Both the position numbers and the translations under genes were made by a program. Shown here one piece after another: positions 8,569 to 56,933 of a stretch of DNA of 64,000 nucleotides. The notes beneath the pieces are model-generated. The model did no database searches and was not told the DNA's origin. It saw only the letters and a list, made by a program, of their open reading frames with translations. Position 1 is the stretch's first letter; the number at the start of each line of letters is the position of its first letter. Source of the stretch: an uncultured Verrucomicrobiota bacterium (GTDB lineage: Bacteria > Verrucomicrobiota > Kiritimatiellia > CAIQIC01 > Lenti-01); the NCBI GenBank assembly GCA_937872095.1, contig CALMNW010000070.1, positions 30,542 through 94,541 on the forward strand, given 5' to 3'.

Positions 8569-8585
8569 CTTCAACTTCCCGATCG

Positions 8586-8614
8586 GGCGGGTCGCCGGGC
8601 CGCGCCGACCCGCC
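8586..8614. promoter_or_regulatory. GC-rich hairpin (9-bp stem GGCGGGTCG/CGACCCGCC, 11-nt loop) in the leader about 18 nt upstream of the PocR-PAS gene start
   Basis: A perfect inverted repeat is read from the sequence. It has no flanking U-tract, so it is more likely a 5'-leader structure than a terminator. Confidence 0.3.
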
Positions 8615-8765
8615 GCGCCAAACTGTTAGGAATATATTAAGACCCTAAATGGGGGAGAGGTCAATGGGGCAGTGAAAATATTTGTCAAATCGCTCGGTGA
8701 TTTCCCGGCGCGAGCTTCCCGCTGGAGTTCGCCGGCGTGAACGCAGCGCCATGGCCTGCAAAAAA

Positions 8766-12857: not shown

Positions 12858-12885
12858 TTGACTCGACTTCTCAATATTGTACATT
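12858..12885 (+). promoter_or_regulatory. Candidate sigma70-type promoter: TTGACT, a 16-nt spacer, then TACATT, about 110 nt upstream of the giant gene
   Basis: Hexamer matching only; weak evidence. Confidence 0.2.
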
Positions 12886-12937
12886 TATTGATAATTAATG
12901 GTGAGAATTTAGCTGGAAAACCGTTTTCCCGGCTGCG

Positions 12938-12946
12938 TTTTTTTTA
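12938..12946 (+). repeat. T9 homopolymer tract in the 5' leader of the giant gene, preceded by a short GGAAAAC/GTTTTCC inverted repeat
   Basis: Read from the sequence. A homopolymer of this length is unusual in a 68% GC genome. Confidence 0.5.
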
Positions 12947-12993
12947 TTCGCGTGATTTAACCGATCGAAAGAAGAATCGCCAACTGGAATCGG

Positions 12994-15900
12994 ATGAAAA
13001 AGCGGATCACTAAAAGGAGCGGAGTTTTCACGGCATCGTTCCTGTTGGCATGGTCGTCTTTGCCGGCCTGGGCCGCGAACCCCGACGGCGACCTGCGCAT
13101 CGAGGTGGCGTCCGCCTACAACTTCGTGGTCGATTCCAACGTGGAGTCGCCCTCGACCTACGCGCCGCGCGCGGCGTACCTGAGCGCGACGTTCTACAAC
13201 GACGGGACGAACGCGTTGACCAACGTCTGGGCGTACATCGGCGACTACACCAACGGCACGCCGGGGACGTATCCGAGCCGCGCCCAGGCGCCGTACATCG
13301 GTCCGTTGCCGGGCGACGCCTTTGCGCTGACGCATGAAGGCGGGGCGGCGGGCGCCACGGACGCCACGCGCTATCTCGGCACGATCCTGCCGGGCGAGAG
13401 CAAGACGGTGTACTGGCTGGTGAGCTATCCGAACGTCGACGAGGACGGGAAAACAGTGACGGGCGGGATCAAGCCGGACGACGACTTGTGGCTGCAATAC
13501 GGCATCTGGGGCACCGCGCTGGATGCGGGAACGCCGCTGGAGGCCGACGTGACGCGCACGGTGACGATGCGCAACGAAATCTCGGCGATGGCCAACAAGA
13601 TCTTTCCGAACGGAGCCAACAAGGTGCCGCAGGAATACCAGGATCTCCTGGAACTTTACCAGCCGTCCTGGACGAACACGGCCGACGACGGTTCGCCGGG
13701 CACCGTGATCGCGACCGAAGGCGTCTGGTACGATTTGGGCAACGTGGGGGCGGGGTTCGACAACGACGGCGATTTGATCCCCGACCGCAACGCGTGGCTC
13801 CAGCCGGTGGGCGACGCGGCTTTGTTCGATTCTTCGTGTTTCCGGCTCGTGCACACCTACGCGCTGGTGATCGTGAAGCTGAACGACGGGACCGAGACGA
13901 TCTACAACGTCGAGGACCAGCTCTACTTCGAGAACGTCCCGGAAAACAACCGCGGGGCGGTCGGCTACGTGCGCTACGAGTTCATGGCCATGCGCGGCGG
14001 CTGTTCGAGCGCTCTGACCCCGTACCAGGAGGTGGCGTCGGGTTTCGACAACGAGAAGTTCAACGGCGATTACGGGGCCTATTTGGGCCAGGGATTGACC
14101 AGCCTGGAAGCCCACATGTCGGTCGCCAAAAGCGTGGATCATCCGTTCATCGCGCCCGGGGAAACCCTGTCCTACACCATCGCCTTCACGAATCCCGGGC
14201 CGGTGTCGGTGGGCGATCCCGATGCGAACGCCGGGCTGGTCATCCGCGAGCATATTCCCCACGGGACGCTGTACGTCGGCCTCAGCTCGACCGCCAGCAA
14301 TACCTTGCCGGGCGGCGTCGGCGCCTACACGATGCTGTATTCGACCAACAACGGCGCGACTTGGCAGGGCACCGAGCCGGCCGATCCCGCGACCGTCACC
14401 GACGTCCAGTGGTGGCTGAGCGATCCGCTCGCGACCAACGTGGCCGGATCGGTGAAAATGCAGGTGACGGTCCAGACGCCCTTTACGAACGCACCGTTCA
14501 TCACGAACCAGGCCTGCGCCACGATCGCCGGCGAGGGCGAACTCGCCTGCGGCGAGACCACCACGTACGTCTCCGGCACCAACCGGCTGGGCGATCTGGT
14601 GTGGGCGGACAACGGCGCCGGCGGAGGACTGCTGGGCAACCAGATCCAGGACGGGACCGAGCCGGGACTGTCCAACGTCACCGTCTGGCTTTTCTACGAC
14701 GCCAACACCAACGGGCTGTACGATGCCGGGGATCTGTACTACGGCTCGAACGTCACGAGCGCGTCCGGCGCCTATCTGTTCACGAATCTGCCCGACGGCA
14801 AATTCGTGGCCCGCGTGGATGCCTGGGATCCGGACCTGCCTCTCGGCTACACGCCGACGACCGCCACGAACGTCGCCGCCGACCTCGATTCCGCCCACGC
14901 GACCACGAACACGATCTCGTTCCTGGCCGCCGACTTCGGCTTCGCGCCGGCGCTGTCGCTGAAGAAAACCCTGACGAGCACCAACGCCTTCCGCGAGGGG
15001 CAGTACGTCACGTACAGCCTGGCCGTTTCCAACAACCTGCCGGGCAACGGCACCGGCGGAGGGTCGCTGGCGACCTATTACGCTTGGGCGACCAACGGAG
15101 TGACCGGAGCGGAATGGCTGTCGTCTACGAACGCCTACGTTCCGCCGGGGCCGGACGGGCTGTACGCTTCCAACAACTTCAAGGCGGCCTCGAAGACCTT
15201 TGTTCTGGACCGGTTCCCGCTGGGCGCGCAGCCGGGCGGCATCAGCAACGTGTCGGTGGTGATGCCCATCGTGGTCGTGCCGCTCCTGCTCAATCCCGAC
15301 ACGTTCGACGTGCACGTCGACCAGCTGTCGCCGGCGCAGCGGATCTTCACGGGCAATTACATGGCCACGAATCTGGTCACCGGCACCATGACCATTCCCA
15401 TGACGGGCACCTTCGCCTGGGCGTGGGCCGACTTCGCCACGAACTACACGGTGACGCTGACCTGCGCGAAAGGCGGCGGGGTGGGCGGCTCGATCTGGCT
15501 GCTGCTGGACGCGGTGGGGTTCAAGATCCAGAGCACCGCGACGACCGGGGTGGGCAGCGCGACCACGACGCTGAAGCCGGTGCCGCTGACGGACTGCTAC
15601 GACGCGGACCAGTTCCAGTTCGTCGGCGCGGTTCCGCCGCAAACCGGCAGCTTGACCAACGGCACGGCGCCGAACGCGACGGGCACCTTGTACTGGGCCG
15701 ACCTGGGGCCGATCTATCCGGGCGGGACCTCGACGGTGGCGGTGACTTTCAAGTTGCTGAAACCGACCGGCAACACGAACAGCGTCGTGACGAACGTCGC
15801 GTGGGCGACGAACGCGCTGTTCCTCGGCGGCAAGCCCGCCAACAACGCCACCAGCCTCGTGGTCAGTACGCAGCTTCCGGCGGCGACGGTGGGCGACTAC

Positions 15901-18900
15901 GTCTGGCGCGACCTGAACGCCGACGGCGTCCAGAACGAAACGAACATGGGCATCTCGGGCGTGGCCGTTTCCCTCACGCCACCGGCCACCATCGATCTGG
16001 GGAACGGTCTGGGCGCGGCGATCACGAACTGGACGGATGCCTCGGGCTACTATCTGTTCGAATCGATCCCGGCGACGGGCGTCTACACGGTGCGGGTGGT
16101 GACGGCCACGCTGCCGGGCGGGTCCGGGACCAACACCTTCGACGAAGACGGGGTGCGGGACAACGCGCACGCCGTCTATCTGGACATCTATTCCGCGCCC
16201 GCCAGCACCAACAACGTGCACTTGACGACGGACTTCGGCTACCAGACGGGCACGACCATCGAAGGCACGATCTGGCACGACGTCGACCACGGCATGGAGA
16301 CGAACCGCGAGGCGGGCGAGGACTGGCTGACGAACGTGACGGTCTATCTGTGCGCGAGTCCCTCGCCCTGCGGTCCGGGCGCGTCGCTGGCAACGAACGT
16401 CGCGACCACGAACGGCTACTTCCGCTTCGTCGGCAGCTACACGGGCACCTACACCGTGATGGTGGCGACCAACACGGGCATGCTGTCGACAGGCACGTGG
16501 AACCTGTCGTGGGACACGGACGGGACCAACACGGCGAACTATTCCTCCGTGACGGTGGTGAGCGGCGGCGTGGCGCGCGCGGACTTCAGCTATTGGCGGA
16601 CGGGACCCTACGCGATCGGCGACACGCTGTTCTACGACTGGGACGGCAACGGGACGCAGACGGCCACCAACGAGGAGGGCATCGCCAACGTCACGGTCTA
16701 CCTCTACGAGGACGCCAACGGCAATGGCGTGGTGGACGTCGCGACGGATGCGCTGGCCGGCATCACGGTCACGGCGACGAACGGCTATTATTCCTTCACC
16801 AACCTGTTCGCGACGAACACCTACCTGGTCGTCGTGGACCGGAACGATCCGGACCTGCCGCCGCTCTACAACGTCACCGCGGATCCCTGGGGGGCGAAGG
16901 ACGGGCGCAGCGTGGTCACGATCACCAACGCCAACGACTTCGCGCAGGACTTCGGCTTCCAGCCCTACGGCACCGGCGCCATCGGCGACACGGTCTGGCG
17001 GGACCTGAACGCGGACGGCCTCCAGTCCGGCGTGCAGGAAACCGGCATCGCGAACGTCCTGGTCAGCCTCTACGCGGACCTGAACGGCGACGGCACGTAC
17101 GTGCTGCTGAAGACCACGAACACCGGTTCGTCGGGCACCTACCTGTTCGGCTCGCTGCCGGACGGGAATTACCGGGTGGTGGTGGATGCGGCCGACGCCG
17201 CCCTGCCGCAGGACGCCTTCGGCAACGTCTACTATGCCAGCACGGCCACCTCGCACGACGTGACGATCAGCGGCGGCAGCACTTATCTGGACGCCGATTT
17301 CGGCTTCGCGCCCTACGCCGCGATCGGCGACACGATCTTCTGGGACGCCAACCGCAACGGCACGCAGGACTACTCCGAAGAGGGCGTCTCCGGCGTGGTG
17401 GTCCGGCTGTATGTCGACGCCAACGCCAACGGATTCTATGACGCCGGCGAAACGCTGGCCGCCAGCCGGACCACGGACGTCAACGGGCTGTATCTGTTCG
17501 CCGGGCTGGCACCAAGCAACTACGTGGTTGTGGTGGACGGGGCCAGCGGTCCGCTGGCGGGGGCGTTCCTTTCCGCCGATCCGGATTCCAACGGACTGCC
17601 CTGCGAAGATCTCGACGTGCCGCAGCCGTGCGACGGCGAACACGGCCGGTCTCTGGTCAACGGCCAAAACTACATGGGCGCCGACTTCGGCTATATTCCG
17701 CCCGGCGCGGTCATCGGCGACACGCTGTGGATCGATACGGACGACGACGGCGTCCGCGACGACAACGAGAGCGGCATCGCCTACGTGTCCGTGGTGCTTT
17801 GGTCCAACGGCGTCGCGATCGCCACGAACGAGACCGACGGCGACGGGTGGTATTACTTCAGCAACCTCGGCGACGGTACTTTCCAAGTATCCGTCGTCGG
17901 CAGCGATCCGGACTTCCCGCCGGGCTTGACCCAGACCTACGATCCCGACGGCAATCTCGACGGCGTCGGCACCAATATCGTGGTGTCCGGCGGCGCGGTG
18001 ACGTCCGTCGGGGGCGTGCCCTGCACGGACTGCGACTTCTCGATCGATTTCGGCTACCGCTACGCGGGCAACAACAGCCTGAGCGGCACGATCGGCTTCG
18101 ATGCGACGCCCTACGACGGCGTGCTGAACGGCACGAACTGGAACGGCGTGGCGGCCGACGAGGTGGCCTACGCGAACGTCCAGGTCTATCTCTATCTCTG
18201 GAACGACGACGGCGACGGCATCGTCGAGGCCGGCGAATACGTCCAGGTGTCCACGACGACCACGTCCACCAACGGCGATTATGCGTTCACGGGCCTGCCC
18301 AACGGCGACGGCGACGACCAATACGTCGTGGCCAGCCTCGCGCCGGAAGACTACCTGAAACTCACTACCACCAATGGGTCCATCGCCGGGGTGGGGGTGG
18401 TCGAGACCGCGAACGCGCAGGGCAACACGGTGTCGGCCTATCTGACGGTCGCCATCGCGCCGGAAATCAACGGCATGGATTTCGCCTATCGCTCGACCAA
18501 GGTGTACGATTACGGCGACCTGCCCCAAAGCTACCAGACGGAGTTTCCCGGCGGCGCGCGGCACATGGTGACCTACCTGACGAACCTCTATCTCGGCGCC
18601 GCGGTCGACGTCGAACTCAACGGCGTGCCCTCGTCGCTGGCGGACGGCGACGACCTCGCCGGCGGGGACGACGAGGACGGCGTGGACCTGATCGGCCGCT
18701 GGGCGCCGGGGGTGGACGGCGGCACCGTGGAGGTGACGGTGGGCAAGGGCACCGGCTGGCTGCTGGGCTTCATCGATTTCAACGGCGACGGCGATTTCAA
18801 CGACGCCGGAGACTTGGCCGTGAACCAAGCCGTGGCCACCAATGGCGGTCCGGGCCTCGACGGCGTCTACGAGATCCCGCTGGCCGTTCCGGCGGGCAGC

Positions 18901-21900
18901 CTGAGCACGACGAACAGCACCGTGCTCTACGCGCGGTTCCGCCTGTTCCCCAGCGCGCCGTTCCTGCCGCAACTGGCCTATTCCGGCACGGCGGACAACG
19001 GCGAGGTCGAGGACTACCGCTGGATTCTGCACGTCATCGGCGGAACCGTTTTCGCGGATGCCGACGCGGATTCCCTCTTCTCCGGCGGCGACACGATCAT
19101 CCCGGGCACGGTCGTGCATCTCTACGACGGCCTGGGCGCCCTGATCGAATCGACGGTGACGGACCTTTCCGGAAACTACGCGTTCGTCGGCCTGCCGGAC
19201 GGGAACTACCGCGTCGAGATGGAGACGCCGGCCGGCACCGCCGCCATCCTCGACCGGGATGGCAACGGCAACGGCGCGACGAACATCGCGGTGACCGTGG
19301 CGGGCGACAGCGTGTTCACGCGGGATTTCCTGGTGGACAACGGCGCGTCCTTGGCTGCGATCAGCGGCACGGTGTTCGAGGACGACGGCTACGGCGTCGT
19401 GGGCGACGGCGCCTTCAACGCGCCCGACCGGCCCGTGCCCGGCACGACCGTTTCGCTCTACCGCGACATCGACGGCGACGGCGTGGCCGATCTGAACGAG
19501 TGGATGGCCGACGTCGTCGCGGACGTCGGCGGCGCCTACGCCTTCGCCAACCTGCCGCCCGGCGATTACCTCGTCGTCATGACCACGCCCGCCGGCGCCA
19601 CCAGCATCACCGACGTGGATGGCAACGGCAACGGTTCCGCGCTGATCGAAGTGCCGCTGGCCGGCGTGGACGTGACCGACCGGGATTTCCTGGTGGACGG
19701 CGCGCCGCCGGCCGCCCTGAGCGGTCTGATTTGGTTCGACGCCAACGACAACGGCATCCGCGCGGGATCGGAAACCAACCGGTTCGCGAACATTCCGGTC
19801 TATCTGCTCGACGTCGATTCCAACGTCGTGGCGGCGGTCACGACCGGCGTGAGCGGCGCGTATGCCTTCACCAATCTGGCGCCCGCGAACTATTTCGTGC
19901 GTTTCGATTTGGCGGCGCTCAGCACCAACGACTATCGCATCGCCTCGCCCTACCAGGGGACCAACACCACCCTCGACAGCGATGTGATCCAGGGACAGGT
20001 GGGCGACAACGCCCAAACCGCCGTGCTGCTGCTGAGCGTCGGCCAAAACCAGGAAAACGTCGACTTGGGCTTGACGCCGCCGCCGCCGACCTGGGCCGCC
20101 GTGGCCGATGTCTGGGGCGAATGGACGGAGGGCGAGGGCCGAGTGGTTTGGCACACGAGTTCCGAATTCGGCACGGCCGGCTTCTTCGTCTATCGCGTCG
20201 ATCCGGAGACGGGGGCGGAAACGCGCCTGAACGACGTGCTGGTGCCGTCGGCATTCGAACCGTCCGGTTCCATCTATTGGCTCGCGGATCCGGACGCCGC
20301 GGAAGGCGGCGACGGGACCTACCGGCTGGAAGAAGTGGAACTGTCGGGCCAAGTCATCGACGTCGGCATGCAGGAAATCCGCTTCGCCGCGCCGCCGCCG
20401 GCGGCGAAGGCGGCCCGGGCGGAAATCCGGGCGGCCAAGGCCGTCGCGCCGGTCACGTACGCCGCGGCCAAACTGGCTGGCCCATCGAGCGTGCTCAAGG
20501 TGTCGTTCCGGGACGAAGGCATCTACGGGATCGGCCTGCAAGCCATCGCCGACGGCATGGGCCTGGCGTTGGCGGACGTGCAGGCGCTGGCCGCAGCGGA
20601 TGGACTGCGAATTTCGGCCCAAGGCGCGGCGGTCCCGGCAATCTACGACGCGGCGCGCGCGCGGCTGGTCTTCTGCGGCCAGGCGACGGACAACTGGTAT
20701 GCGCGCGACAACGCCTGCCTGATTTCGCAGGCTTCCGGCGCGGCGATGCCCCGGCGCGAGCCGGGCGCTTCGTCGGGCGGCACGGTTTTTCCGGTGCAGG
20801 TTCGTTTCGAGCAGGACCGCTATCCGTTCGACAGCGCGCTGATCAAGCCCGACGACTTCTATTACTGGGACTACGTGATCAGCGGCACGAATGCCGCCTC
20901 GCTGCGCAGTTTCCCGCTGGATTTGGCCGGCCGCACCGGCAACGTGGTCCTGAAGATCCGGCTGATGGGCTGGTCGAGCACGACCAACGATCCGGACCAT
21001 CTGGCGGAAATCCGCTTCAACGGAACGACGGTGGGATCGGTCGCCTTCGACGGGCAAGACGCGGTCGAAGCCGAGGTGACGATTCCGTTGGCCGCGGTCT
21101 CGAACGGCGCGAACGTGGTGGCGGTGAAAGGCGTGTTGCCCGAAGGCCGCAGCCACAGCTACTTCGTGGTGGATTGGATCGAAGCGTCCTTTGAACGCGA
21201 TCTGGCGCCGATGAACGGGACGGCGGACTTCCGCGCGGGCACCGCCGCGGCCGTATCCGCCGCGGCGTTCGCCGCGCCGCTGGCCATGGCGTTGGACGCG
21301 GCCGGGAATCCGACGTGGATCGCCGACGAGACCGGAACGCTCCCCGCCAAGGCGTGGGCCGTGGCTGCCGAGAACGAACGTTTCGCGGTCGCGGAAGCGG
21401 ATGGCATTCCGCTGCTTGCGCCCGAGCCGGTCAATGCCGCCCCGTGGTTCCTGGCGGCAACCAACCGGATCGACTATCTGGTCGTCGCTTCGCGCGCGCT
21501 GGCCGCCGCGGCGCAGGAATTGGCGGATTATCGCGCGAGCCAGGGGTTGCGCGTGGGCGTGGCGACGTTCGAGGACGTCTGCGATTGGATGGCGGCCGGC
21601 CTGTATACGCCCGAAGCGATTCCGGCCTTGCTTTCGTACGCCGCCGGCACGTGGGCGGAAGCGCCTTGGATGGTGGTGCTGGCGGGCAACGGGCACTACG
21701 ACTATCTCGGCGCGCTGAGCAACGAGGTCAACCACGTCCCGCCCATGATGCTGCAAACGCTGGATGGACTTTTCGCCTCCGACGGACTGCTGGCGGACCT
21801 CGACGGCGACGAGCTGCCCGATGTTGCCATCGGCCGCCTGCCCGCGCTGACCGCCGCGGATCTCGCCGCCATGATCGCCAAGATCAAGGCCAGCGAACTC

Positions 21901-22956
21901 GGTTTCGGGGAAACCTGGCAGAACCAGATCGTGTTGTCCGCCGACAAGGCCGATCCCGAGGCCGGCGATTTCCGGGCATCCAACCAGCAGCTGGCCCTGC
22001 AGGCGGACGCGACGCATCCGGTGGCGCAGCAGATCGATCTGGATTCCATGGCGATCGCCGCGGCGCGCAGCGCCGTCTCGAATTGGTTCCGAAACGGAGC
22101 CGGATTCATCCATTACACCGGCCACGGCAATGCCACCGCGATCGGTTCCCTGAGCACGAAATTGCTGGCGGCGGCGGACGTCGGTCGGATGGCCAACGCG
22201 ACGCGGCCCCCCGCTTTCGTGGCGCTGAGCTGTCTGGTCGGCCGGTTCGAGGCGCCGGGGGTGCAGAGCCTCAGCGAACTCCTGCTGCGGCGCGCCGGCG
22301 GCGGGGCCGTGGCGGTCTGGAGCGCGTCGGGCATGTCCCGCAATGCGCCGGCCACGGAAATGGCCGAGGCGTTCTATCGTGCCGTGGTGCAGGATGGCGC
22401 CGGCACCTGGGGACTCGCGATTCTCCGCGCCCGCCGCTCGCTGGCCAGCACTTGGGCGACCAAGGACACCTTCGCCGTCTACAATCTGTTCGGCGATCCG
22501 GCGCTGCGGATGGCCGGCAACGTGGGCGCGTCCGCCGCCGCCGCGACTTTTGCCCAATGGCGCTGGGAACGTTTTGCGCCGGCCGATTTGGCCGACGCGG
22601 CCACAAGCGGAGCCACGGACGCCAATTTCGCCGAATATGCGCTCGGCGGAAACGATCAGGTCTTGGCCGAACTGCCGGAATTCGGATTCCCGTTGCCGGC
22701 GCTCGACGGCGTGGCGACCCGCGCGGAAAGCGCTGCCGGCGTCGTGCTGCGCTGGAAACGGCGCATCCAGCGCGCAGACATCCAGTATTTGTTGTTTATT
22801 TCGGAAAATCTGGAAGAATGGGAAACGGATCCGGACGATGTCCAAACGGTGGGCGTCGAACCGGATGCCGACGGCATCATGGAAACCGTGCGCACGCGGG
22901 TGAACCGCCCGTGGGCGGAACGGGTGTATATCGGCGTGAAAGCGAAACGGAAATAG
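12994..22956 (+). CDS. Giant (3320 aa) secreted surface protein with a signal peptide, DUF11-like and many SdrD-B-like/Cna-B-type Ca-binding beta-sandwich repeats (GDxVWxDLNADGxQ), and a C-terminal peptidase C25 (gingipain-like) domain
   Basis: The signal peptide reads MKKRITKRSGVFTASFLLAWSSLPAWA. There are more than 15 repeats of the IGDTxWxDxNxNGxQD motif. The C-terminal region has a His (IHYTGHGN) and a Cys (VALSCLVGRFE) in the arrangement of the C25 catalytic dyad. A fully open antisense ORF on the opposite strand was rejected. Confidence 0.9.
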   Translation: MKKRITKRSGVFTASFLLAWSSLPAWAANPDGDLRIEVASAYNFVVDSNVESPSTYAPRAAYLSATFYNDGTNALTNVWAYIGDYTNGTPGTYPSRAQAPYIGPLPGDAFALTHEGGAAGATDATRYLGTILPGESKTVYWLVSYPNVDEDGKTVTGGIKPDDDLWLQYGIWGTALDAGTPLEADVTRTVTMRNEISAMANKIFPNGANKVPQEYQDLLELYQPSWTNTADDGSPGTVIATEGVWYDLGNVGAGFDNDGDLIPDRNAWLQPVGDAALFDSSCFRLVHTYALVIVKLNDGTETIYNVEDQLYFENVPENNRGAVGYVRYEFMAMRGGCSSALTPYQEVASGFDNEKFNGDYGAYLGQGLTSLEAHMSVAKSVDHPFIAPGETLSYTIAFTNPGPVSVGDPDANAGLVIREHIPHGTLYVGLSSTASNTLPGGVGAYTMLYSTNNGATWQGTEPADPATVTDVQWWLSDPLATNVAGSVKMQVTVQTPFTNAPFITNQACATIAGEGELACGETTTYVSGTNRLGDLVWADNGAGGGLLGNQIQDGTEPGLSNVTVWLFYDANTNGLYDAGDLYYGSNVTSASGAYLFTNLPDGKFVARVDAWDPDLPLGYTPTTATNVAADLDSAHATTNTISFLAADFGFAPALSLKKTLTSTNAFREGQYVTYSLAVSNNLPGNGTGGGSLATYYAWATNGVTGAEWLSSTNAYVPPGPDGLYASNNFKAASKTFVLDRFPLGAQPGGISNVSVVMPIVVVPLLLNPDTFDVHVDQLSPAQRIFTGNYMATNLVTGTMTIPMTGTFAWAWADFATNYTVTLTCAKGGGVGGSIWLLLDAVGFKIQSTATTGVGSATTTLKPVPLTDCYDADQFQFVGAVPPQTGSLTNGTAPNATGTLYWADLGPIYPGGTSTVAVTFKLLKPTGNTNSVVTNVAWATNALFLGGKPANNATSLVVSTQLPAATVGDYVWRDLNADGVQNETNMGISGVAVSLTPPATIDLGNGLGAAITNWTDASGYYLFESIPATGVYTVRVVTATLPGGSGTNTFDEDGVRDNAHAVYLDIYSAPASTNNVHLTTDFGYQTGTTIEGTIWHDVDHGMETNREAGEDWLTNVTVYLCASPSPCGPGASLATNVATTNGYFRFVGSYTGTYTVMVATNTGMLSTGTWNLSWDTDGTNTANYSSVTVVSGGVARADFSYWRTGPYAIGDTLFYDWDGNGTQTATNEEGIANVTVYLYEDANGNGVVDVATDALAGITVTATNGYYSFTNLFATNTYLVVVDRNDPDLPPLYNVTADPWGAKDGRSVVTITNANDFAQDFGFQPYGTGAIGDTVWRDLNADGLQSGVQETGIANVLVSLYADLNGDGTYVLLKTTNTGSSGTYLFGSLPDGNYRVVVDAADAALPQDAFGNVYYASTATSHDVTISGGSTYLDADFGFAPYAAIGDTIFWDANRNGTQDYSEEGVSGVVVRLYVDANANGFYDAGETLAASRTTDVNGLYLFAGLAPSNYVVVVDGASGPLAGAFLSADPDSNGLPCEDLDVPQPCDGEHGRSLVNGQNYMGADFGYIPPGAVIGDTLWIDTDDDGVRDDNESGIAYVSVVLWSNGVAIATNETDGDGWYYFSNLGDGTFQVSVVGSDPDFPPGLTQTYDPDGNLDGVGTNIVVSGGAVTSVGGVPCTDCDFSIDFGYRYAGNNSLSGTIGFDATPYDGVLNGTNWNGVAADEVAYANVQVYLYLWNDDGDGIVEAGEYVQVSTTTTSTNGDYAFTGLPNGDGDDQYVVASLAPEDYLKLTTTNGSIAGVGVVETANAQGNTVSAYLTVAIAPEINGMDFAYRSTKVYDYGDLPQSYQTEFPGGARHMVTYLTNLYLGAAVDVELNGVPSSLADGDDLAGGDDEDGVDLIGRWAPGVDGGTVEVTVGKGTGWLLGFIDFNGDGDFNDAGDLAVNQAVATNGGPGLDGVYEIPLAVPAGSLSTTNSTVLYARFRLFPSAPFLPQLAYSGTADNGEVEDYRWILHVIGGTVFADADADSLFSGGDTIIPGTVVHLYDGLGALIESTVTDLSGNYAFVGLPDGNYRVEMETPAGTAAILDRDGNGNGATNIAVTVAGDSVFTRDFLVDNGASLAAISGTVFEDDGYGVVGDGAFNAPDRPVPGTTVSLYRDIDGDGVADLNEWMADVVADVGGAYAFANLPPGDYLVVMTTPAGATSITDVDGNGNGSALIEVPLAGVDVTDRDFLVDGAPPAALSGLIWFDANDNGIRAGSETNRFANIPVYLLDVDSNVVAAVTTGVSGAYAFTNLAPANYFVRFDLAALSTNDYRIASPYQGTNTTLDSDVIQGQVGDNAQTAVLLLSVGQNQENVDLGLTPPPPTWAAVADVWGEWTEGEGRVVWHTSSEFGTAGFFVYRVDPETGAETRLNDVLVPSAFEPSGSIYWLADPDAAEGGDGTYRLEEVELSGQVIDVGMQEIRFAAPPPAAKAARAEIRAAKAVAPVTYAAAKLAGPSSVLKVSFRDEGIYGIGLQAIADGMGLALADVQALAAADGLRISAQGAAVPAIYDAARARLVFCGQATDNWYARDNACLISQASGAAMPRREPGASSGGTVFPVQVRFEQDRYPFDSALIKPDDFYYWDYVISGTNAASLRSFPLDLAGRTGNVVLKIRLMGWSSTTNDPDHLAEIRFNGTTVGSVAFDGQDAVEAEVTIPLAAVSNGANVVAVKGVLPEGRSHSYFVVDWIEASFERDLAPMNGTADFRAGTAAAVSAAAFAAPLAMALDAAGNPTWIADETGTLPAKAWAVAAENERFAVAEADGIPLLAPEPVNAAPWFLAATNRIDYLVVASRALAAAAQELADYRASQGLRVGVATFEDVCDWMAAGLYTPEAIPALLSYAAGTWAEAPWMVVLAGNGHYDYLGALSNEVNHVPPMMLQTLDGLFASDGLLADLDGDELPDVAIGRLPALTAADLAAMIAKIKASELGFGETWQNQIVLSADKADPEAGDFRASNQQLALQADATHPVAQQIDLDSMAIAAARSAVSNWFRNGAGFIHYTGHGNATAIGSLSTKLLAAADVGRMANATRPPAFVALSCLVGRFEAPGVQSLSELLLRRAGGGAVAVWSASGMSRNAPATEMAEAFYRAVVQDGAGTWGLAILRARRSLASTWATKDTFAVYNLFGDPALRMAGNVGASAAAATFAQWRWERFAPADLADAATSGATDANFAEYALGGNDQVLAELPEFGFPLPALDGVATRAESAAGVVLRWKRRIQRADIQYLLFISENLEEWETDPDDVQTVGVEPDADGIMETVRTRVNRPWAERVYIGVKAKRK

Positions 22957-22958
22957 CG

Positions 22959-23255
22959 GTGGTTCGGAACGCTTCAGGGACCTATCGGATAAACGGCAAG
23001 GTGGTTCTGCGCCGGATCGGCGAAGACCGCCTGCTGGTGCCGGTGGCGGGCGCCGTCGCGCGCGAATGCTGCGTGTTTCCGGTCAACGAAACGGGCGAAT
23101 TCATCTGGACGCGGCTGGCGCGGGGCGAACCGCTCGGCGCGATCGCGGCGGCGCTGGAAGCGGAGTTCGCCGTGGCGCCGGAAGCGGCCTTGGCCGATTG
23201 CCGCGAATTCGCGGAGAAACTCGTGGCCCAGCGGTTGCTGGAGGTGGCGGGGTGA
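22959..23255 (+). CDS. PqqD-family protein (RiPP recognition element-type peptide chaperone)
   Basis: The 98-aa product (YRINGKVVLRRIGEDRLLVPVAG...VFPVNETGEFIWTRLARGEPLGAIAAALEAEFAV...ADCREFAEKLVAQRLL) matches the PqqD architecture. The GTG start lies 2 nt after the giant gene's stop. Confidence 0.8.
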   Translation: MVRNASGTYRINGKVVLRRIGEDRLLVPVAGAVARECCVFPVNETGEFIWTRLARGEPLGAIAAALEAEFAVAPEAALADCREFAEKLVAQRLLEVAG

Positions 23256-24343
23256 CTCGCGCCGTCCAAGCCGCGACCGGGGAGTGGACTGCGGGATTTC
23301 GTGCGCGCGCCGCCCGGTCTCGCTTGCCCGTTTCCGCCACGCTGGAACTGACGCGGCGCTGCAATCTGCGCTGCCTCCACTGCTATCTGGGCGACCAGGC
23401 GGACCACCTGCGCGACGAGGACCGCGAGCTCGCGACCGCCGCCGTGCGCGCGGCGATTTCCGACTGGGTCGAAGCGGGCTGTCTGTATCTGACGATCACC
23501 GGCGGCGAGCCGTTGCTGCGGCCCGATTTCGCCGAAATCTATCGCCATGCGCGCAATTTGGGCCTGGTCGTGACGGTGTTTTCCAACGGAACGCTGGTGA
23601 CGGCCGGGATCGCGGAGTTGTTCCGCGAGTGGCCGCCGCGCAAGGTGGAAATCAGCCTCTGCGGCGCGACGGCGGAAACCCACGACGCGATCGCCGGCGT
23701 GCCGGGCGCGCACGCGCGGACTTGGGCGGGGATCCGCCGCCTGCAGGCCGCCGGCGTGCGCCTCGCGCTGAAAACGGTGTTGCTGAAGCGCAATCTCGGC
23801 GAATTGCCAGAAATGGAACGCCAGGCCGCCGAAATCGGCGCGGCCTTCCGCCACGACGCGGCGATTTTTCCCTGCCTGGACGGCGGCTCGCGCGCGCCGC
23901 TGGCGCTGCGCGTTTCGCCGGCAGAGGCCGTGCGGGCGGACATGGCCACCGCGGCCCGCCGCGCCATGTGGCGAGCCAAGATCGAGCAGACCGCGGGCGC
24001 TCCCGCCGACGACCGGCTGTACGCCTGCGCCGCGGGCCGGTCCGCGTTCTGCGCCGACCCGTTCGGCGGACTTGCACCGTGCCTGCTGGCGGAAAATTAC
24101 CGGTGCGAACCCGCCGGCCGCCCGTTCCGGGAAATCTGGAACGGCGAACTGGCCGCCATCCAGGGCCGGAAGCGTTCGCGGAACGACGTCGTTTTCGCCG
24201 GCGAGATGCGCGGCGCCTGCGCGCATTGTCCGGCGTTCAACCGGATCGAAACCGGCCATGAAGAAATGGAATCGGATTACGTGAAAAAGAGCACTTGGTT
24301 GCGCTACGGCGCGGCGATGGAGGATGCAGATGAAGCCCAATGA
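23252..24343 (+). CDS. Radical SAM enzyme with a C-terminal SPASM/twitch Cys-rich domain (peptide-modifying maturase, PqqE-like class)
   Basis: It has the CNLRCLHC CxxxCxxC motif, a GGEPLL motif, and a C-terminal CAAGRSAFCADPFGGLAPC...C...CAHCP cluster. The GTG start overlaps the PqqD stop (GTGA). Confidence 0.85.
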   Translation: MTRAVQAATGEWTAGFRARAARSRLPVSATLELTRRCNLRCLHCYLGDQADHLRDEDRELATAAVRAAISDWVEAGCLYLTITGGEPLLRPDFAEIYRHARNLGLVVTVFSNGTLVTAGIAELFREWPPRKVEISLCGATAETHDAIAGVPGAHARTWAGIRRLQAAGVRLALKTVLLKRNLGELPEMERQAAEIGAAFRHDAAIFPCLDGGSRAPLALRVSPAEAVRADMATAARRAMWRAKIEQTAGAPADDRLYACAAGRSAFCADPFGGLAPCLLAENYRCEPAGRPFREIWNGELAAIQGRKRSRNDVVFAGEMRGACAHCPAFNRIETGHEEMESDYVKKSTWLRYGAAMEDADEAQ

Positions 24344-24515
24344 TGAAAACCGTTCGCCTGCGGGCTTGGATCTGACCGTGCGCCGTCCGTACGAAAAACC
24401 CGACATCGAACGCGTGGATCTGGCGTTGGCCGAGACGCTGTCGCAGGGCTGCAAACTGGAGTCCGACAGCGGTTGCGTCGGCCCGCCGATCACGGCGTAC
24501 GAGGGAGGATCTTGA
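24330..24515 (+). CDS. Candidate RiPP precursor peptide (61 aa; alternative ATG at 24324)
   Basis: A GGAGG Shine-Dalgarno at 24317-24321 sits 8 nt before the ATG, inside the 3' end of the rSAM gene. The product MKPNDENRSPAGLDLTVRRPYEKPDIERVDLALAETLSQGCKLESDSGCVGPPITAYEGGS has a leader segment (KPDIERVDLALAETL) that resembles the PqqA leader motif (KPAFIDLRLGLEVTL) bound by PqqD, and its core contains C-x7-C. Confidence 0.5.
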   Translation: MKPNDENRSPAGLDLTVRRPYEKPDIERVDLALAETLSQGCKLESDSGCVGPPITAYEGGS

Positions 24516-25414
24516 GGAACGTCGGCCATCTAGACGTCGGTCCGCTGCGTTTCGCGCTGCGGACCGCGGAGCTTGGCGCGGTGCGATATTCCGATCCGGC
24601 CTACGGCGGGTTTTTCTCCGCGGCGGGGCCGGGGGAGCCCTTGGCCCAATTGCCGGTGGATCTGGTGCGCGGCGTGCCGCCGCCGCCGGCCGGCGCGCCG
24701 TTGTGGCGGGCGGGGGACCACTGGGCCGTTTGGGAAGACGGCGCCGATTTGCTTTTTCACGTCGGCTTGCGGGCGCCGGAAACCGCGCGGCTGGCCTGCC
24801 GCGTCGCGCGCGATTTGACGCGCGCGGAATTGGCGCGCTCTTCCGCGGAGCGCGAGGATGGCATTTGCGAAGCGCCCTTGCGGTATCCGCTGGACCAGAT
24901 CCTGTCGTGGGGATTGCTGGCGCAGATCGGCGGAACGTTGCTGCACGCGGCCGTGGCGGTGAAGGACGGCGTCGGGCGCGTTTTCACGGGGCGCAGCGGC
25001 GCGGGCAAGTCCACCATCTCGGGTCTGCTGCACGCCGCCGGCTGGCGGATCCTGAACGACGATCGCGTCGTCGTGTTCCGGCGCGGCGGCGAATGGCGCG
25101 TGGCCGGCACGCCGTGGCACGGTTCGGGTCGCTTCGCCGAAGCGGCGGAAGTTCCGCTCGCCGGCATCCATTTTCTGCAGAAAGCGGCGGAGTGCCGCCG
25201 GGAGTCCATGTCGGCGTCGCAAATTCGGTTGGCGTTGCTGGACGTGGCGGCGGTGCCGTGGTTCGAAGAGACCTGGGCGCAGGGAACGCTCGATGGGCTG
25301 GAGCGGCTGACGCGCGAAGTCGAGATCGCGCGGTTTCATTTCCCGAAAACCCCGGCGGCGGTCCGGGAACTGGCCGGGATTCAGGAATTCCGCGGGGCAG
25401 GAGCCTGCGCATGA
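24512..25414 (+). CDS. HprK-related kinase (HPr kinase C-terminal domain-like P-loop protein)
   Basis: GRSGAGKST is followed by LNDDRVVV, matching the HprK P-loop/ADD pattern. The start is uncertain; a TTG at 24512 overlaps the peptide stop (TTGA) and follows GGGAGG. An antisense ORF was rejected. Confidence 0.65.
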   Translation: MRNVGHLDVGPLRFALRTAELGAVRYSDPAYGGFFSAAGPGEPLAQLPVDLVRGVPPPPAGAPLWRAGDHWAVWEDGADLLFHVGLRAPETARLACRVARDLTRAELARSSAEREDGICEAPLRYPLDQILSWGLLAQIGGTLLHAAVAVKDGVGRVFTGRSGAGKSTISGLLHAAGWRILNDDRVVVFRRGGEWRVAGTPWHGSGRFAEAAEVPLAGIHFLQKAAECRRESMSASQIRLALLDVAAVPWFEETWAQGTLDGLERLTREVEIARFHFPKTPAAVRELAGIQEFRGAGACA

Positions 25415-25833
25415 AACGCCTGGCGGAAATGGATCAACATGCGGCGCAACGGGCGCAGGGCAAAACGCAAGAGGCCGGTCCAACGGGCGCGACGGGTGTC
25501 CAAGAGCCGGATCTTCCCGTTTTGACAAGAACTTGCGGCGACGCCGATCACGTCGGATTTGGGGATCCAGTCGCCGCCCTTCACGGCGGCATCGCCGACG
25601 GCAAAAACGCGATTTGTTCGTTTTTCGTTAATTGTGCATCGGTGCAAGACAAGCCGGCCGTTAATTTGATAAAGTATAACGCTTCCACGGTGGATCGTGC
25701 CGACATCCAGCGGTTGGATGAGAACGCCGTCTCCGTCGCGGATGGTCGGATGCATGCTGGGCCCTTGAGCGTGAAAGGTGACGGGCGTGCGCTGCTGGAG
25801 CAGCGCGGCGAGGATGGTTTGGATATCGCGCAT
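25381..25833 (-). CDS. S24/S26-family serine peptidase (signal-peptidase-I/LexA-like), a candidate leader peptidase
   Basis: The 150-aa product has the GPSMHPTI nucleophile motif (GxSMxPT). Its 3' end overlaps the HprK-like gene by 34 nt (convergent). The plus-strand frame over this region has no recognisable domains and was rejected. Confidence 0.65.
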   Translation of the reverse strand: MRDIQTILAALLQQRTPVTFHAQGPSMHPTIRDGDGVLIQPLDVGTIHRGSVILYQINGRLVLHRCTINEKRTNRVFAVGDAAVKGGDWIPKSDVIGVAASSCQNGKIRLLDTRRARWTGLLRFALRPLRRMLIHFRQAFHAQAPAPRNS

Positions 25834-25872: not shown

Positions 25873-27756
25873 ATGAGCAACACAAGCATCGTTTTTCGGG
25901 CGGGGCGGCTGGCGCTGGCGGGCTGCCTGCTGTCCTGGACGGCGCAGGCGGCCAAGCCTACGGGCGAGGCGATCGTGGCCGCGATGACCGGCCGCGCCCA
26001 AGCGCGCGTGTTCACCGCGCCCGTCCACGAAGGGCGCACGGAGCTGATGGATTTGTTCGAGGGGGCTTCCGTCGGCGAGAACGTCCGCGTGATCACCGGT
26101 AAGGATGGCCGCCTGTGCCTGGTGTGTTCGCCGGGCGCGATCCTGTGCGTCGCGCCGAACACCGAATTCGTCATCGATCAATTGCGCCACACGGCGGACG
26201 GCTTGCCGGAGAGCGAAGACGATTTGATCCGCCGCATCCACGTGCGCCTGCTCAAAGGCCGCCTGCGCGTGCAGGCGGGAACGCCCCTGCCGACGCTGGA
26301 TCTGCGGATCGATACGTCGGCCGGCCGGGTCGAAGCCCACGGGGGGGCGTTCGTGGTCGCGCAAGGCGAACAAGATCGCTGGCACGTCGCCTGCGAAGCG
26401 CACGAATTGGCGGTCGTTCCCCGCAACGGCAGCCGCACGGAACTGAAGGCGAACCAAGCCGCCTGGCTGGCGGCCGACGGCGAAGAGCGCGGCGCCTTCC
26501 GCTGGGAAGACATCGGCGAAAACCCGGAACTCTACCAGTTCGAGCTGTGCAACGCCTTTTTCGCGGATCTGGAGCCCTTCATCCATCACGAGCGGCCGTT
26601 CGACCGGGAAGGGCTCGGGCAATATATCGGCGCGACCGCGCCGTTCCTCGATCTGGATGCCGGCGCGCTGGTGACGGATGCCAGCCCCACGATCCGGCCG
26701 GCGGTGGCGGCCGTTCGGCCCGCCGCCTTGCCCCGGCCCGGAGAAGGGGCGCCGGGCGGACGTTGGGATGAAATCCGCATCTGGAAGTGGTTCGACGATC
26801 TCGGCACGGTGAAAGGGGTGAACTATATCCCCCGCACGGCCGTTAATTCGGTCGAGATGTGGATGGAAGACACTTTCGACCCCGATACGATCGACGAAGA
26901 ACTGGGCTGGGCGCGGGACGTCGGCTACACCGGCATCCGCGTCCAACTTCAATTCGCGGTATGGCAGGACGATCCCGACGGATTTCTCGACCGGGTGGAT
27001 CGGCTGCTCGAGATCGCGGCGAAACACGGGTTGCGCGTGGTGCCGGTGCTGTTCGACGACCTGAATCGGGCGGGCCAGGCCCCGCACGTCGGTCCGCAGC
27101 CCGAACCGCTTCCCGGCGAACACAACGCCCGGTGGGTGCCCAGTCCCGGCGCCGCTGCGGTGAAGGATCGCGGCCAGTGGCCCGCGCTGGAAAAATACGT
27201 CAAGGACGTGATGGGGAAATTCAAGCGCGACCGGCGCGTCCTGTACTGGGATCTCTACAACGTGGTCGGCAACGGCGGGCTGGGGGAGGAGTCGCTGCCG
27301 CTGCTGGATCAGACGTTCAACTGGGCGCGTGCCGTCGAACCGTCGCAGCCGCTGGCCGTGCCGGCCTGGCGGGAATTCGGCGGCGCGATGACCGCCCGCG
27401 GACTTGAGCGATCGGACCTGATCACCTTCCAGAGCTTCGACGACGCCGAGAGCGTCGCGGCGCGCCTCCAGTTGCTGCAGCGCTACCAGCGCCCCATCAT
27501 CTGTTCCGATTGGCTGATGCGCCAAACGGGCAACGACTTCGAAAACGTGCTGCCGCTGTTTTCCACCTATCGCGCCGGTTGGTTCAACCAAGGGCTGGTC
27601 AGCGGCAAGACCCACCGGCCCATCCAGGAAGCCGCCTATCGGACGGACAAAGATCCCGACCTCTGGCAGCAAGACGTGTTGCATCCGGATGGAACCCCGT
27701 ACGACCACAAGGAAGTGGAGCTGATCCAGGGCTTCCGCTATCTCGAAGCCCCTTGA
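25873..27756 (+). CDS. Secreted protein with an N-terminal FecR-like domain and a C-terminal glycoside-hydrolase-like TIM-barrel domain
   Basis: A signal peptide (MSNTSIVFRAGRLALAGCLLSWTAQA) begins at the ATG at 25873. A FecR-like segment (VRVITGKDGRLCLVCSPGAILCVAPNTEF) follows. The C-terminal half (GVNYIPRTAVNSVEMW...GIRVQLQF...KHGLRVVPVLFDD) is GH-like. The longer plus-strand ORF from 24703 was truncated to this start. Confidence 0.7.
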   Translation: MSNTSIVFRAGRLALAGCLLSWTAQAAKPTGEAIVAAMTGRAQARVFTAPVHEGRTELMDLFEGASVGENVRVITGKDGRLCLVCSPGAILCVAPNTEFVIDQLRHTADGLPESEDDLIRRIHVRLLKGRLRVQAGTPLPTLDLRIDTSAGRVEAHGGAFVVAQGEQDRWHVACEAHELAVVPRNGSRTELKANQAAWLAADGEERGAFRWEDIGENPELYQFELCNAFFADLEPFIHHERPFDREGLGQYIGATAPFLDLDAGALVTDASPTIRPAVAAVRPAALPRPGEGAPGGRWDEIRIWKWFDDLGTVKGVNYIPRTAVNSVEMWMEDTFDPDTIDEELGWARDVGYTGIRVQLQFAVWQDDPDGFLDRVDRLLEIAAKHGLRVVPVLFDDLNRAGQAPHVGPQPEPLPGEHNARWVPSPGAAAVKDRGQWPALEKYVKDVMGKFKRDRRVLYWDLYNVVGNGGLGEESLPLLDQTFNWARAVEPSQPLAVPAWREFGGAMTARGLERSDLITFQSFDDAESVAARLQLLQRYQRPIICSDWLMRQTGNDFENVLPLFSTYRAGWFNQGLVSGKTHRPIQEAAYRTDKDPDLWQQDVLHPDGTPYDHKEVELIQGFRYLEAP

Positions 27757-56856: not shown

Positions 56857-56933
56857 GCGTCCGTAGCTCAATTGGACAGAGCTTCTGACTTCGGATCAGA
56901 AGGTTGCAGGTTCGAGTCCTGCCGGACGCGCCA
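56857..56933 (+). tRNA. tRNA-Arg: tRNA-Arg (anticodon UCG)
   Basis: A 77-nt cloverleaf: acceptor GCGTCCG/CGGACGC, D-stem GCTC/GAGC, anticodon stem TCTGA/TCAGA with loop CTTCGGA, T-arm GCAGG-TTCGAGT-CCTGC, discriminator G and an encoded CCA. Confidence 0.85.

Follow-up and report, generated by a model that had tools for sequence, protein, structure and literature searches.

The 64,000-nt stretch of DNA analysed in the present study (contig CALMNW010000070.1 from an uncultured bacterium of the Kiritimatiellia; hereafter the window) contains a giant gene for a putatively exported protein of 3320 amino acids (aa) (12994..22956, + strand) with a C25-family cysteine peptidase domain near its end. 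A peptide-maturation cassette follows, which encodes a PqqD-family peptide-binding protein, a radical S-adenosylmethionine (radical-SAM) enzyme, a 61-aa precursor peptide, and an HPr-kinase-related protein resembling ScmC. We found that the linkage of C25 genes to this cassette is conserved across at least three phyla. The components are of known kinds and the combination is new, namely a PorU-type module outside Bacteroidota, carried on giant stalks and tied to a SynChlorMet/HPr-rel-like cassette. This linkage points to an uncharacterised surface system.

Regarding the linkage, an earlier sequence-only reading of the window had assigned the giant gene to the PqqD/radical-SAM module, and this assignment held up: the same cassette stands beside C25 genes in Kiritimatiellia, Lentisphaerota/Victivallales, Thermoanaerobaculia, and Chloroflexota, and relatives of the giant were found to keep the cassette when we looked for unrelated neighbours. 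The arrangement, which had been called unusual, turned out to be standard in this lineage. As C25 relatives, we collected homologues of the C-terminal 921 aa, which comprised Kiritimatiellia "C25 family cysteine peptidases" of 960 to more than 4000 aa. In assembly GCA_964510645.1, a 3328-aa and a 1289-aa C25 gene are followed by genes for PqqD, the radical-SAM enzyme, a 60-aa open reading frame (ORF), and ScmC; next in line come a FecR-like gene, an outer-membrane barrel, Wza, Wzc, and Wzy_C. Two more assemblies have one or two shorter C25 genes, a giant C25 gene (3893 or 4267 aa), and the same cassette string, and in a fourth the stop codon of a 3353-aa giant overlaps the PqqD start.

A radical-SAM scan of one genome per species yielded 40 loci, against which all window proteins were searched by tblastn. 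The counts below refer to 30 loci, the window and 29 others with a radical-SAM enzyme at least 35% identical to that of the window (four retrieved separately). In 23 of them, the distance from the end of the C25 gene to the first gene of the cassette was -12 to +320 nt, and in five the C25 gene lay within 10 kb of the cassette (L011, L026, L027, L029, and L047/L048); one locus (L028) was too short to judge, and one from Planctomycetota (L031) had no C25 gene in a flank of 5-9 kb. The gap between giant and cassette was 1-2 nt in L008, L009, L012, and L013, with an overlap in L006, L015, and L024. Loci in which radical-SAM identity fell to 21-30% held unrelated radical-SAM genes and no partner genes. 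According to the record titles, the taxa were Kiritimatiellia, "Verrucomicrobiota", Lentisphaerae, Victivallales, Thermoanaerobaculia (Acidobacteriota), Anaerolineae, and Chloroflexia. Gene order took four forms: C25, PqqD, radical-SAM, peptide, ScmC; C25, radical-SAM, peptide, PqqD, ScmC; C25, peptide, radical-SAM, ScmC; and PqqD, radical-SAM, peptide, ScmC, with C25 further downstream. Since the Thermoanaerobaculales locus L024 holds only a 2865-aa giant with a signal peptide that ends in C25, the radical-SAM enzyme, the peptide, PqqD, and ScmC, followed by RNase R, these five genes represent the minimal linked unit. When metagenomes were scanned with a profile built on distant radical-SAM relatives, 80 loci were obtained; an upstream C25 gene was present in 10 of 10 assessable loci of the window/Thermoanaerobaculia-type clade, and 8 loci of a third, Chloroflexi-like clade had a C25 gene. 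Where C25 is adjacent, its domain and the radical-SAM enzyme diverge in step (Spearman rho 0.87, n=25), in agreement with co-inheritance or, equally, with shared phylogeny. One to three tandem C25 paralogues occur per locus, with very different stalks and some of them catalytically dead; the window itself has a single C25 gene.

The peptidase of the giant is complete. Pfam placed Peptidase_C25 (PF01364) at aa 2828-3173 (21475..22512, + strand) with 228.1 bits against a cut-off of 23 (E 2.6e-67; profile positions 1-374 of 374). It is preceded by beta-rich domains (aa ~2496-2827; 20479..21474, + strand) homologous to the N-terminal domains of PorU by profile comparison with the PDB, NCBIfam, and an AlphaFold2 model. 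The best peptidase match in NCBIfam was PorU, a type IX secretion system (T9SS) sortase (NF033707; aa 2638-3174), at 139.9 bits against a family cut-off of 420. A profile (A1) built from the last 921 aa of the giant and 15 homologues matched PorU in the PDB (6za2_A, E 2.9e-47) over PorU residues 14-786, covering the N-terminal domains and the catalytic domain; the match to RgpB (E 1.4e-25) was confined to the catalytic domain. With the last 821 aa as a single query sequence, the PDB gave no match. The AlphaFold2 model of the module had a mean predicted local distance difference test score (pLDDT) of 84 and a predicted template modelling score of 0.75, with the PorU-like N-terminal beta domains mostly above 85. 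Foldseek ranked PorU at the top for this model (E 9e-23, ~1000 columns), followed by RgpB (1cvr, E 2.3e-17; template modelling score 0.66, normalised to target) and Kgp (E 1.6e-14). Judged by these profiles and the modelled fold, the last ~830 aa resemble PorU more than the gingipains. The "gingipain-like" label of the sequence-only reading should thus be replaced by "PorU-like", also because the Propeptide_C25 domain (PF08126) was not matched in the giant, while the same domain was detectable in a relative (L026:3828-6875).

The catalytic dyad was retained. His3044 (22123-22125, + strand) lies in HYTGHGN, of which YTGHG aligns with YAGHG of PorU and YTGHG of RgpB (His211 in RgpB), and Cys3080 (22231-22233, + strand) lies in LSCLVGRFE, which aligns with TATCD of PorU and VACVNG of RgpB (Cys244 in RgpB). 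The fusion of a repeat stalk with a C25 domain that keeps its His and Cys, as previously proposed, was therefore confirmed by Pfam and by the alignment to PorU and RgpB. Of the 38 homologues in the alignment with the window protein, most have both residues; the Cys is lost in P0028, P0029, and P0030, and P0034 has lost the Cys and the His, the latter replaced by Y. A pseudo-peptidase was considered for the giant and rejected on this alignment; it applies to one subgroup of paralogues only. These dyad-loss paralogues are the MBG-domain proteins of Kiritimatiellia (P0028-P0030 and P0034), in which Cys is replaced by D, G, or S, and MBG-domain pseudo-peptidases are encoded in the same super-locus (L048 4364-12411).

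The gene model of the giant agrees with the public gene calls, which hold identical 3320-aa, 98-aa, and 61-aa products, so the 3320-aa ORF of the sequence-only reading stands, as does the PqqD start 2 nt past its stop: the giant ends with TAG at 22954-22956, followed by CG and by the GTG of PqqD at 22959. The interval 12994-23255 given in that reading takes in the giant gene plus PqqD. An antisense ORF of 3316 aa (12895..22845, - strand) mirrors the giant and was rejected as a high-GC artefact because the G+C content at third codon positions is 0.88 in the + frame (0.49 at second positions) and every domain match is on the + strand. The AT-rich intergenic region of 525 nt upstream of the giant contains two overlapping sigma-70-like promoter matches (12858..12895, + strand), the only promoter-like matches on that strand in the region; the scan gave three matches against 1.5 expected in shuffled sequences, which is weak evidence. 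No terminator-like sites were detected between the giant stop and ScmC, and the successive junctions are a 2-nt gap, a GTGA overlap, a 14-nt overlap, and an overlap of ~40 nt. It is plausible from this layout that the giant and the cassette are transcribed as a single unit. An Rfam scan gave no RNA element in or near the region, the sole match in the window being a tRNA at 56857-56930 (+ strand).

The giant begins with a Sec-type signal peptide read by eye (aa 1-27, MKKRITKRSGVFTASFLLAWSSLPAWA, followed by ANP and without a lipobox; 12994..13074, + strand). A head of ~350 aa follows (aa 28-380; 13075..14133, + strand), which had no Pfam match and no PDB sequence match and shares 57-90% identity with the heads of the giants in L002, L008, L014, L015, and L020. 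The stalk (~aa 380-2370; 14134..20100, + strand) consists of SdrD_B, DUF11, and CarboxypepD_reg-type beta-sandwich repeats according to Pfam and NCBIfam, with 11 stretches of SdrD_B (E 4.3e-123) and a GEVED domain at aa 1925-2009 (18766-19020, + strand). Sixteen calcium-site-like motifs of the form D-x-[DN]-x-[DN]-G were found in the giant, the first at aa 569 and the last at aa 2249, both within the stalk, and our feature list places 14 of them in 14134..20100. Among homologues, the stalk measures between 0 and over 3000 aa. Directly before the PorU-like module, the AlphaFold2 model showed a beta-sandwich (aa 2370-2465, WGEWTEGEG...MQEIRF; 20101..20388, + strand), referred to here as domain X, which is restricted to loci with a C25 gene and in the Anaerolineae loci L026 and L027 forms a separate exported, membrane-anchored protein. 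In both of these loci, two small exported proteins are encoded between the C25 genes and the cassette (L026 6933-9171), one of them the carrier of domain X; they end in a hydrophobic helix and an Arg-rich tail resembling a sorting signal. From these features, we infer that the giant is a Sec-exported fibre with a head, a calcium-site-rich stalk, and a base made of the PorU-type module and a C-terminal beta-sandwich.

The C25 domain is not the true C-terminus, because a module of 147 aa (aa 3174-3320; 22513..22953, + strand) comes after it. The sequence-only reading was correct in placing a C25 domain in the C-terminal part and overlooked this module, which was delineated by the AlphaFold2 model, phmmer, and alignment and consists of helices, a low-confidence linker, and a beta-sandwich of six to seven strands. 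The linker contains the motif AELPEFG (22666-22686, + strand), invariant in the Kiritimatiellia C25 subgroup. An exhaustive phmmer search of 1.84 billion representative proteins with the module gave 62 matches, all at the extreme C-terminus of their proteins; among the 24 matches at E up to 1e-10, 19 had a recognisable C25 domain, and five were short fragments (96-246 aa) in which no C25 was detected. Weaker matches (1e-7 to 1e-3) included large proteins without C25 that carry Calx-beta, PKD, DUF5122, LamG, or M11 peptidase domains. A word-index search returned short fragments only, mostly the ends of recognisable C25 proteins. The modules have the common pattern W..F.P.EL.D..SG..AD.DGDG..N..EYA.G..P, followed by a beta-sandwich ending in F[VI]RL.V, and secreted proteins in this group of bacteria commonly end in such a module. 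No LPXTG, PEP-CTERM, or recognisable T9SS C-terminal signal domain was detected in the giant by Pfam, NCBIfam, and reading of the sequence, and the protein ends in ...VYIGVKAKRK, without a hydrophobic helix or a charged tail. The earlier statement that the giant has no recognisable sorting signal therefore stands for these three kinds of signal and needs to be qualified by the conserved module, which is present on proteins without C25 as well. The terminal beta-sandwich had no Pfam or NCBIfam match, and Foldseek on a poor stand-alone model (pLDDT 56) found generic immunoglobulin-like folds only (E >0.03).

The cassette begins with the 98-aa PqqD-family protein (22959..23255, + strand; Pfam PqqD, E 2.2e-12), which starts with GTG. 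The start of the 363-aa radical-SAM enzyme (23252..24343, + strand; Pfam and NCBIfam) overlaps the PqqD stop (GTGA). This enzyme has the motif CNLRCLHCY and a C-terminal C-x12-G-x4-C ... C-x2-C extension of the SPASM/twitch type, and its best full-length similarity was to MftC and PqqE-type maturases, below every curated NCBIfam cut-off. The third gene encodes the 61-aa peptide MKPNDENRSPAGLDLTVRRPYEKPDIERVDLALAETLSQGCKLESDSGCVGPPITAYEGGS (24330..24515, + strand), supported by the ORF, alignment, and public gene calls. More than 50 relatives of the peptide have the pattern Y-x-K-P-x-[IL]-x-x-[VI]-x-L...E-x-[LV]..G-C-K...C...G-S-stop, with one to three further Cys residues after G-C-K; nearly all end in Ser and most in Gly-Ser, and in Kiritimatiellia the end is E/D-(G/A)-G-S with a core that is 70-90% conserved. 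It is a short ORF with a conserved leader, in which Y-x-K-P is a leader-like motif, and a variable core beside a PqqD-type protein and a modifying enzyme, and by these sequence characters it is a precursor of the ribosomally synthesised and post-translationally modified peptide (RiPP) type with a predicted modification. The fourth gene (24473..25414, + strand, the exact start codon being uncertain) encodes a P-loop protein with TGRSGAGKST, identified by Pfam and NCBIfam, that weakly matches HPr kinase and lies below the cut-offs of ScmC and of the HprK-related kinases A and B; homologues carry the source annotation PF27840 ScmC.

The pairing of a putative HPr-kinase-like kinase with a precursor that ends in Ser is present in the window, and no lasso cyclase genes were found with the cassette. 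Since HPr-kinase homologues act in lasso-peptide clusters, where they phosphorylate the Ser at the C-terminus of the precursor, in some cases followed by glycosylation by a nucleotidyltransferase (PMC8498205), the ScmC-like protein is predicted to phosphorylate Ser61. Convergent with ScmC lies a gene for a 150-aa S24/S26-type peptidase resembling signal peptidase I (25381..25833, - strand; GPSMHP; profile matches), with its closest similarity to signal peptidase I of the archaeal or SipW type. It was absent from the sequence-only reading and is the likely leader peptidase of the cassette. Removal of the leader may be assigned to this enzyme because S-x-G before the invariant Cys fits the rule of small residues at -3 and -1. 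The gene is kept at this spot in all Kiritimatiellia-type loci and after ScmC in other lineages; the Thermoanaerobaculia units are without it. We also considered the S24/S26 peptidase and C25 as mutually exclusive leader peptidases and rejected this, both being present in the window and in all Kiritimatiellia-type loci.

As to what the linkage means, we see about an even chance of a direct action of the C25 module on the matured peptide, outside the cytoplasm, by cleavage or sortase-like ligation. Each chemical step of this reading, as well as the export of the peptide and its encounter with C25, is deduced from the genes and their homologies. The leader of the 61-aa precursor would be bound by PqqD, the core would be cross-linked by the radical-SAM enzyme, probably through two cysteines, the C-terminal Ser61 would be phosphorylated by the HPr-kinase-like ScmC, and the leader would be cut off by the small S26-type peptidase at S-x-G before C-K. 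The matured peptide would then leave the cell and meet the exported C25 module outside the cytoplasm as its substrate or partner, where the module may trim the peptide or, in the manner of PorU, use it in transpeptidation. PorU cleaves at T/E/D/N before G/A/S and transfers the new C-terminus of the cargo to the amine of a seryl-sugar on anionic lipopolysaccharide (LPS), a surface glycolipid (PMC10202324). In a sortase-like version, the module would form the end of the fibre nearest the cell and the peptide would take part in anchoring it, possibly joined to polysaccharide produced by the downstream Wza/Wzc/Wzm-Wzt genes.

We favour a sortase-like or anchoring role over simple leader removal because the module is at what is presumably the cell-proximal end of a fibre resembling an adhesin, tandem C25 paralogues have different stalks and are in part catalytically dead, the cassette comes with a separate S26-type peptidase, the locus stands in a polysaccharide context, and Anaerolineae have small proteins with a helix and an arginine-rich tail between the C25 genes and the cassette. 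C25 is not simply "the" leader peptidase, since the cassette has an S26-type peptidase of its own and occurs elsewhere without C25. The full anchoring model goes further and is decidedly unlikely as a whole. Outside any T9SS, the fibres would carry their own PorU-type sortase module, which would cleave near AELPEFG or act on partner proteins and ligate the fibre to a cross-linked, C-terminally phospho-(glyco)sylated peptide from the neighbouring cassette, and the peptide would link it to the exported polysaccharide. If this model were true, it would represent a third sortase logic beside Gram-positive sortases and PorU/anionic LPS, common to Kiritimatiellota, Lentisphaerota, Acidobacteriota, and Chloroflexota.

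Several observations weigh against a direct action of C25 on the peptide. In the metagenome scan, nine loci of the third, Chloroflexi-like clade were without C25 despite at least 5 kb of flank on each side, and their presence indicates that the peptide has a role independent of C25, because the cassette occurs without the C25 gene. These C25-less cassettes keep the Gly-Ser-ended peptide, ScmC, and the S26-type peptidase; the Gly-Ser end therefore goes with ScmC and not with C25, and its interpretation as a C25-specific recognition tag was rejected. One Kiritimatiellia genome has its C25 genes ~10 kb upstream of the cassette with divergent PAS histidine kinase genes, which also border the giant in the window, between them, and in L047/L048 the C25 genes lie outside the transcription unit of the cassette. 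The correlated divergence of C25 and the radical-SAM enzyme could be due simply to shared phylogeny. The giant stays below the PorU family cut-off, transpeptidase and hydrolase activities are indistinguishable from sequence, the C-terminal module gave no match to a T9SS signal domain, albeit from a poor model, and no peptide exporter is evident in the minimal five-gene unit L024.

Several of the C25-less cassettes lie between Wza and Wzc, together with an NTP_transf_5 nucleotidyltransferase and an S26-GNAT fusion. Because such cassettes exist, often within polysaccharide-export loci, the cassette is best described from its gene neighbourhoods as a hub, with polysaccharide-export partners in some lineages, C25 in others, and both in Kiritimatiellia. 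One of them (L055 8530-18178, metagenome Ga0315279_10000579) has the S26-GNAT fusion and NTP_transf_5 between Wza and Wzc, with type II secretion/pilus-like genes upstream, and its combination of kinase and nucleotidyltransferase recalls phosphoglycosylated lasso peptides. At another locus (L050 3543-10079), two distant C25 genes (26% identity) stand on either side of a 498-aa gene that has an S26-like segment, with no cassette nearby; judging by sequence, this is a possible independent association of C25 with S26.

A strong rival, which we nevertheless regard as rather unlikely, is that C25 is an extracellular peptidase for a second activation step of a secreted signal or antimicrobial peptide, with the stalk holding the enzyme at the edge of the capsule. 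A parallel is offered by lanthipeptide systems with NisP and CylA, which are anchored subtilisins, and a protease beside a peptide-maturation cassette is the classic layout for such products. The intact dyad and conserved adjacency are in keeping with it, C25 would be the sole protease in the Thermoanaerobaculia units without the S26-type enzyme, and the precursor end E/D-(G/A)-G-S in Kiritimatiellia fits the PorU preference for T/E/D/N before G/A/S (PMC10202324). However, a 3000-aa stalk with a conserved head appears excessive for a processing enzyme, tandem paralogues that are in part catalytically dead are difficult to accommodate, and the S26-type peptidase already in the cassette suits the small residues at -3 and -1 before the invariant Cys. 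Core conservation of 70-90% across Kiritimatiellia is also unusual for antimicrobials, and no exporter or immunity genes were seen. It is likewise a strong rival, though again an unlikely one in our estimation, that there is no direct biochemical link at all and that adhesin, cassette, and polysaccharide are co-regulated in one programme for the surface or biofilm matrix, with the peptide acting, for example, as a signal to the SBP/PAS kinases. The C25-less cassettes inside Wza/Wzc loci, PAS/SBP_bac_3 kinases as conserved neighbours, and the separate transcription unit in L047/L048 speak for such co-regulation, whereas the adjacency of C25 and cassette persists across phyla and four gene orders, including L024, which is without polysaccharide genes or kinases, and the gaps of 1-2 nt or overlaps between the giant stop and the next gene recur.

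The position of a cysteine-peptidase gene directly before a small-peptide system is also reminiscent of staphostatins, which are encoded beside staphopains, and cross-linked peptides can inhibit proteases. The matured peptide might accordingly serve as a latency or inhibitor factor for C25, comparable to staphostatins or to the intermolecular latency of PorU, the structure of which is a latent dimer (title of 6za2); nevertheless, we consider this very improbable, given that many cassettes are without C25, the maturation enzymes belong to the cytoplasm, from which the peptidase is exported by Sec, and some C25 paralogues are already catalytically dead. A modification of the giant protein itself by the radical-SAM and ScmC enzymes before export, an alternative raised in the sequence-only reading, is scarcely probable: the tight translational coupling of giant and cassette would suit it, but the cassette encodes a precursor of its own, the leader of which is typical for PqqD binding, and also functions in C25-less loci, and the giant has no precursor-like segment on reading of its sequence.

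Among characterised proteins, PorU was the best profile and fold match, with a shared layout of N-terminal beta domains and a C25 catalytic domain and an aligned dyad, and like the giant it is located at the surface and beside surface-polysaccharide genes. The giant differs from PorU in its score (139.9 bits against 420), its Kiritimatiellia host, and the lack of a detected T9SS signal domain; its module is also fused to a ~2400-aa stalk and head and, unlike PorU, tied to a cassette for a radical-SAM peptide. No T9SS components were found among the window ORFs submitted to Pfam and NCBIfam, which did not include every ORF of the window. The gingipains RgpB and Kgp have the catalytic domain fold and the dyad in common with the giant; however, only the catalytic domain aligns (E 1.4e-25), the giant is without Propeptide_C25 or a detectable T9SS signal domain, and no arginine or lysine specificity can be derived for it. 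The SdrD_B repeats with calcium-site motifs recall SdrD, a staphylococcal adhesin of the microbial surface component recognising adhesive matrix molecules (MSCRAMM) type, as a stalk that would project an N-terminal domain. The giant scored 208.7 bits against a cut-off of 2500 for SdrD (NF012181) and has no LPXTG, serine-aspartate region, or A-domain, and its host has an outer membrane.

In common with SynChlorMet and HPr-rel-A systems, the cassette combines a PqqD-family protein with a radical-SAM/SPASM-type enzyme and an HPr-kinase-related P-loop protein. The SynChlorMet models (TIGR04248-04251) did not reach their cut-offs (ScmC 29.1 against 125, ScmD 18.4 against 100, and ScmE 74.8 and ScmF 92.6 against 400), nor did the HprK-related kinase A of HPr-rel-A (TIGR04352; 35.4 bits against 200). 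The window differs from SynChlorMet in having one radical-SAM enzyme instead of two, an identifiable precursor, and the addition of the S26-type peptidase and C25. The lasso peptides paeninodin and pseudomycoidin resemble the window cassette in their combination of an HPr-kinase homologue with a Ser-ended precursor, and the pseudomycoidin cluster has a nucleotidyltransferase, as do C25-less relatives of the cassette (PMC8498205). In contrast to lasso systems, the window has no lasso cyclase or B protease and has a radical-SAM enzyme instead. Other transpeptidases of clan CD, to which C25 belongs, namely asparaginyl endopeptidase/butelase and the glycosylphosphatidylinositol (GPI) transamidase, perform ligation after the loss of a few C-terminal residues; they are members of family C13, and neither cyclisation nor ligation is indicated by the present results.

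We found no description of a C25/radical-SAM pairing in the literature, and none of the curated NCBIfam families covers the radical-SAM enzyme, the peptide, or their combination. To our knowledge, PorU-type C25 enzymes are understood only within the T9SS of Bacteroidota, and we know of no T9SS in the phyla that carry giant-stalk PorU-type modules. The widespread, uncharacterised peptide family G-C-K...C...G-S-COOH, genetically tied to a PorU-type module, opens questions on the product of SynChlorMet/HPr-rel-type cassettes, on clan CD sortases or ligases beyond T9SS, and on the assembly of the surface coat in Kiritimatiellia. The five-gene cassette and a ~950-aa enzyme module with a Cys3080 control represent defined constructs for future studies.

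Downstream of the cassette, an exported protein of 627 aa (25873..27756, + strand) gave a marginal FecR match (Pfam, E 5.3e-05; 24.0 bits against a cut-off of 24); its C-terminal half looks like a glycoside-hydrolase barrel by eye, and the gene is kept after the cassette in Kiritimatiellia-type loci. Profile matches identified an EpsL/BBP2_2-like outer-membrane beta-barrel (27753..29036, + strand) and a Wza-type polysaccharide export lipoprotein (29093..30106, + strand), which are followed by a Wzc-type chain-length determinant with a tyrosine autokinase (30126..32273, + strand; TIGR01007, 140 bits against a cut-off of 108). The surface-polysaccharide locus as a whole (25873-~53100, + strand) adds a Wzm/Wzt ABC exporter with Wzt_C, GT2 and GT4 glycosyltransferases, and a WecA-like initiating transferase. 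Polysaccharide-export genes were considered as a universal partner of the cassette and rejected, being absent from the Thermoanaerobaculales unit L024.

On the other side, an exported thioredoxin/DsbH-like gene (11671-12468, - strand) is divergent from the giant, with a counterpart (53% identity) upstream of the first C25 gene in L002, and may be relevant to a cysteine peptidase and a Cys-containing peptide. Beyond it lie three large PAS/GAF/PocR histidine kinase genes (824-11588, - strand), one of which includes a periplasmic SBP_bac_3 sensor domain. In L002 and L047/L048, the C25/cassette locus is likewise bordered by similar kinases, and the PAS/SBP_bac_3 kinases are candidates for regulating or sensing the system.

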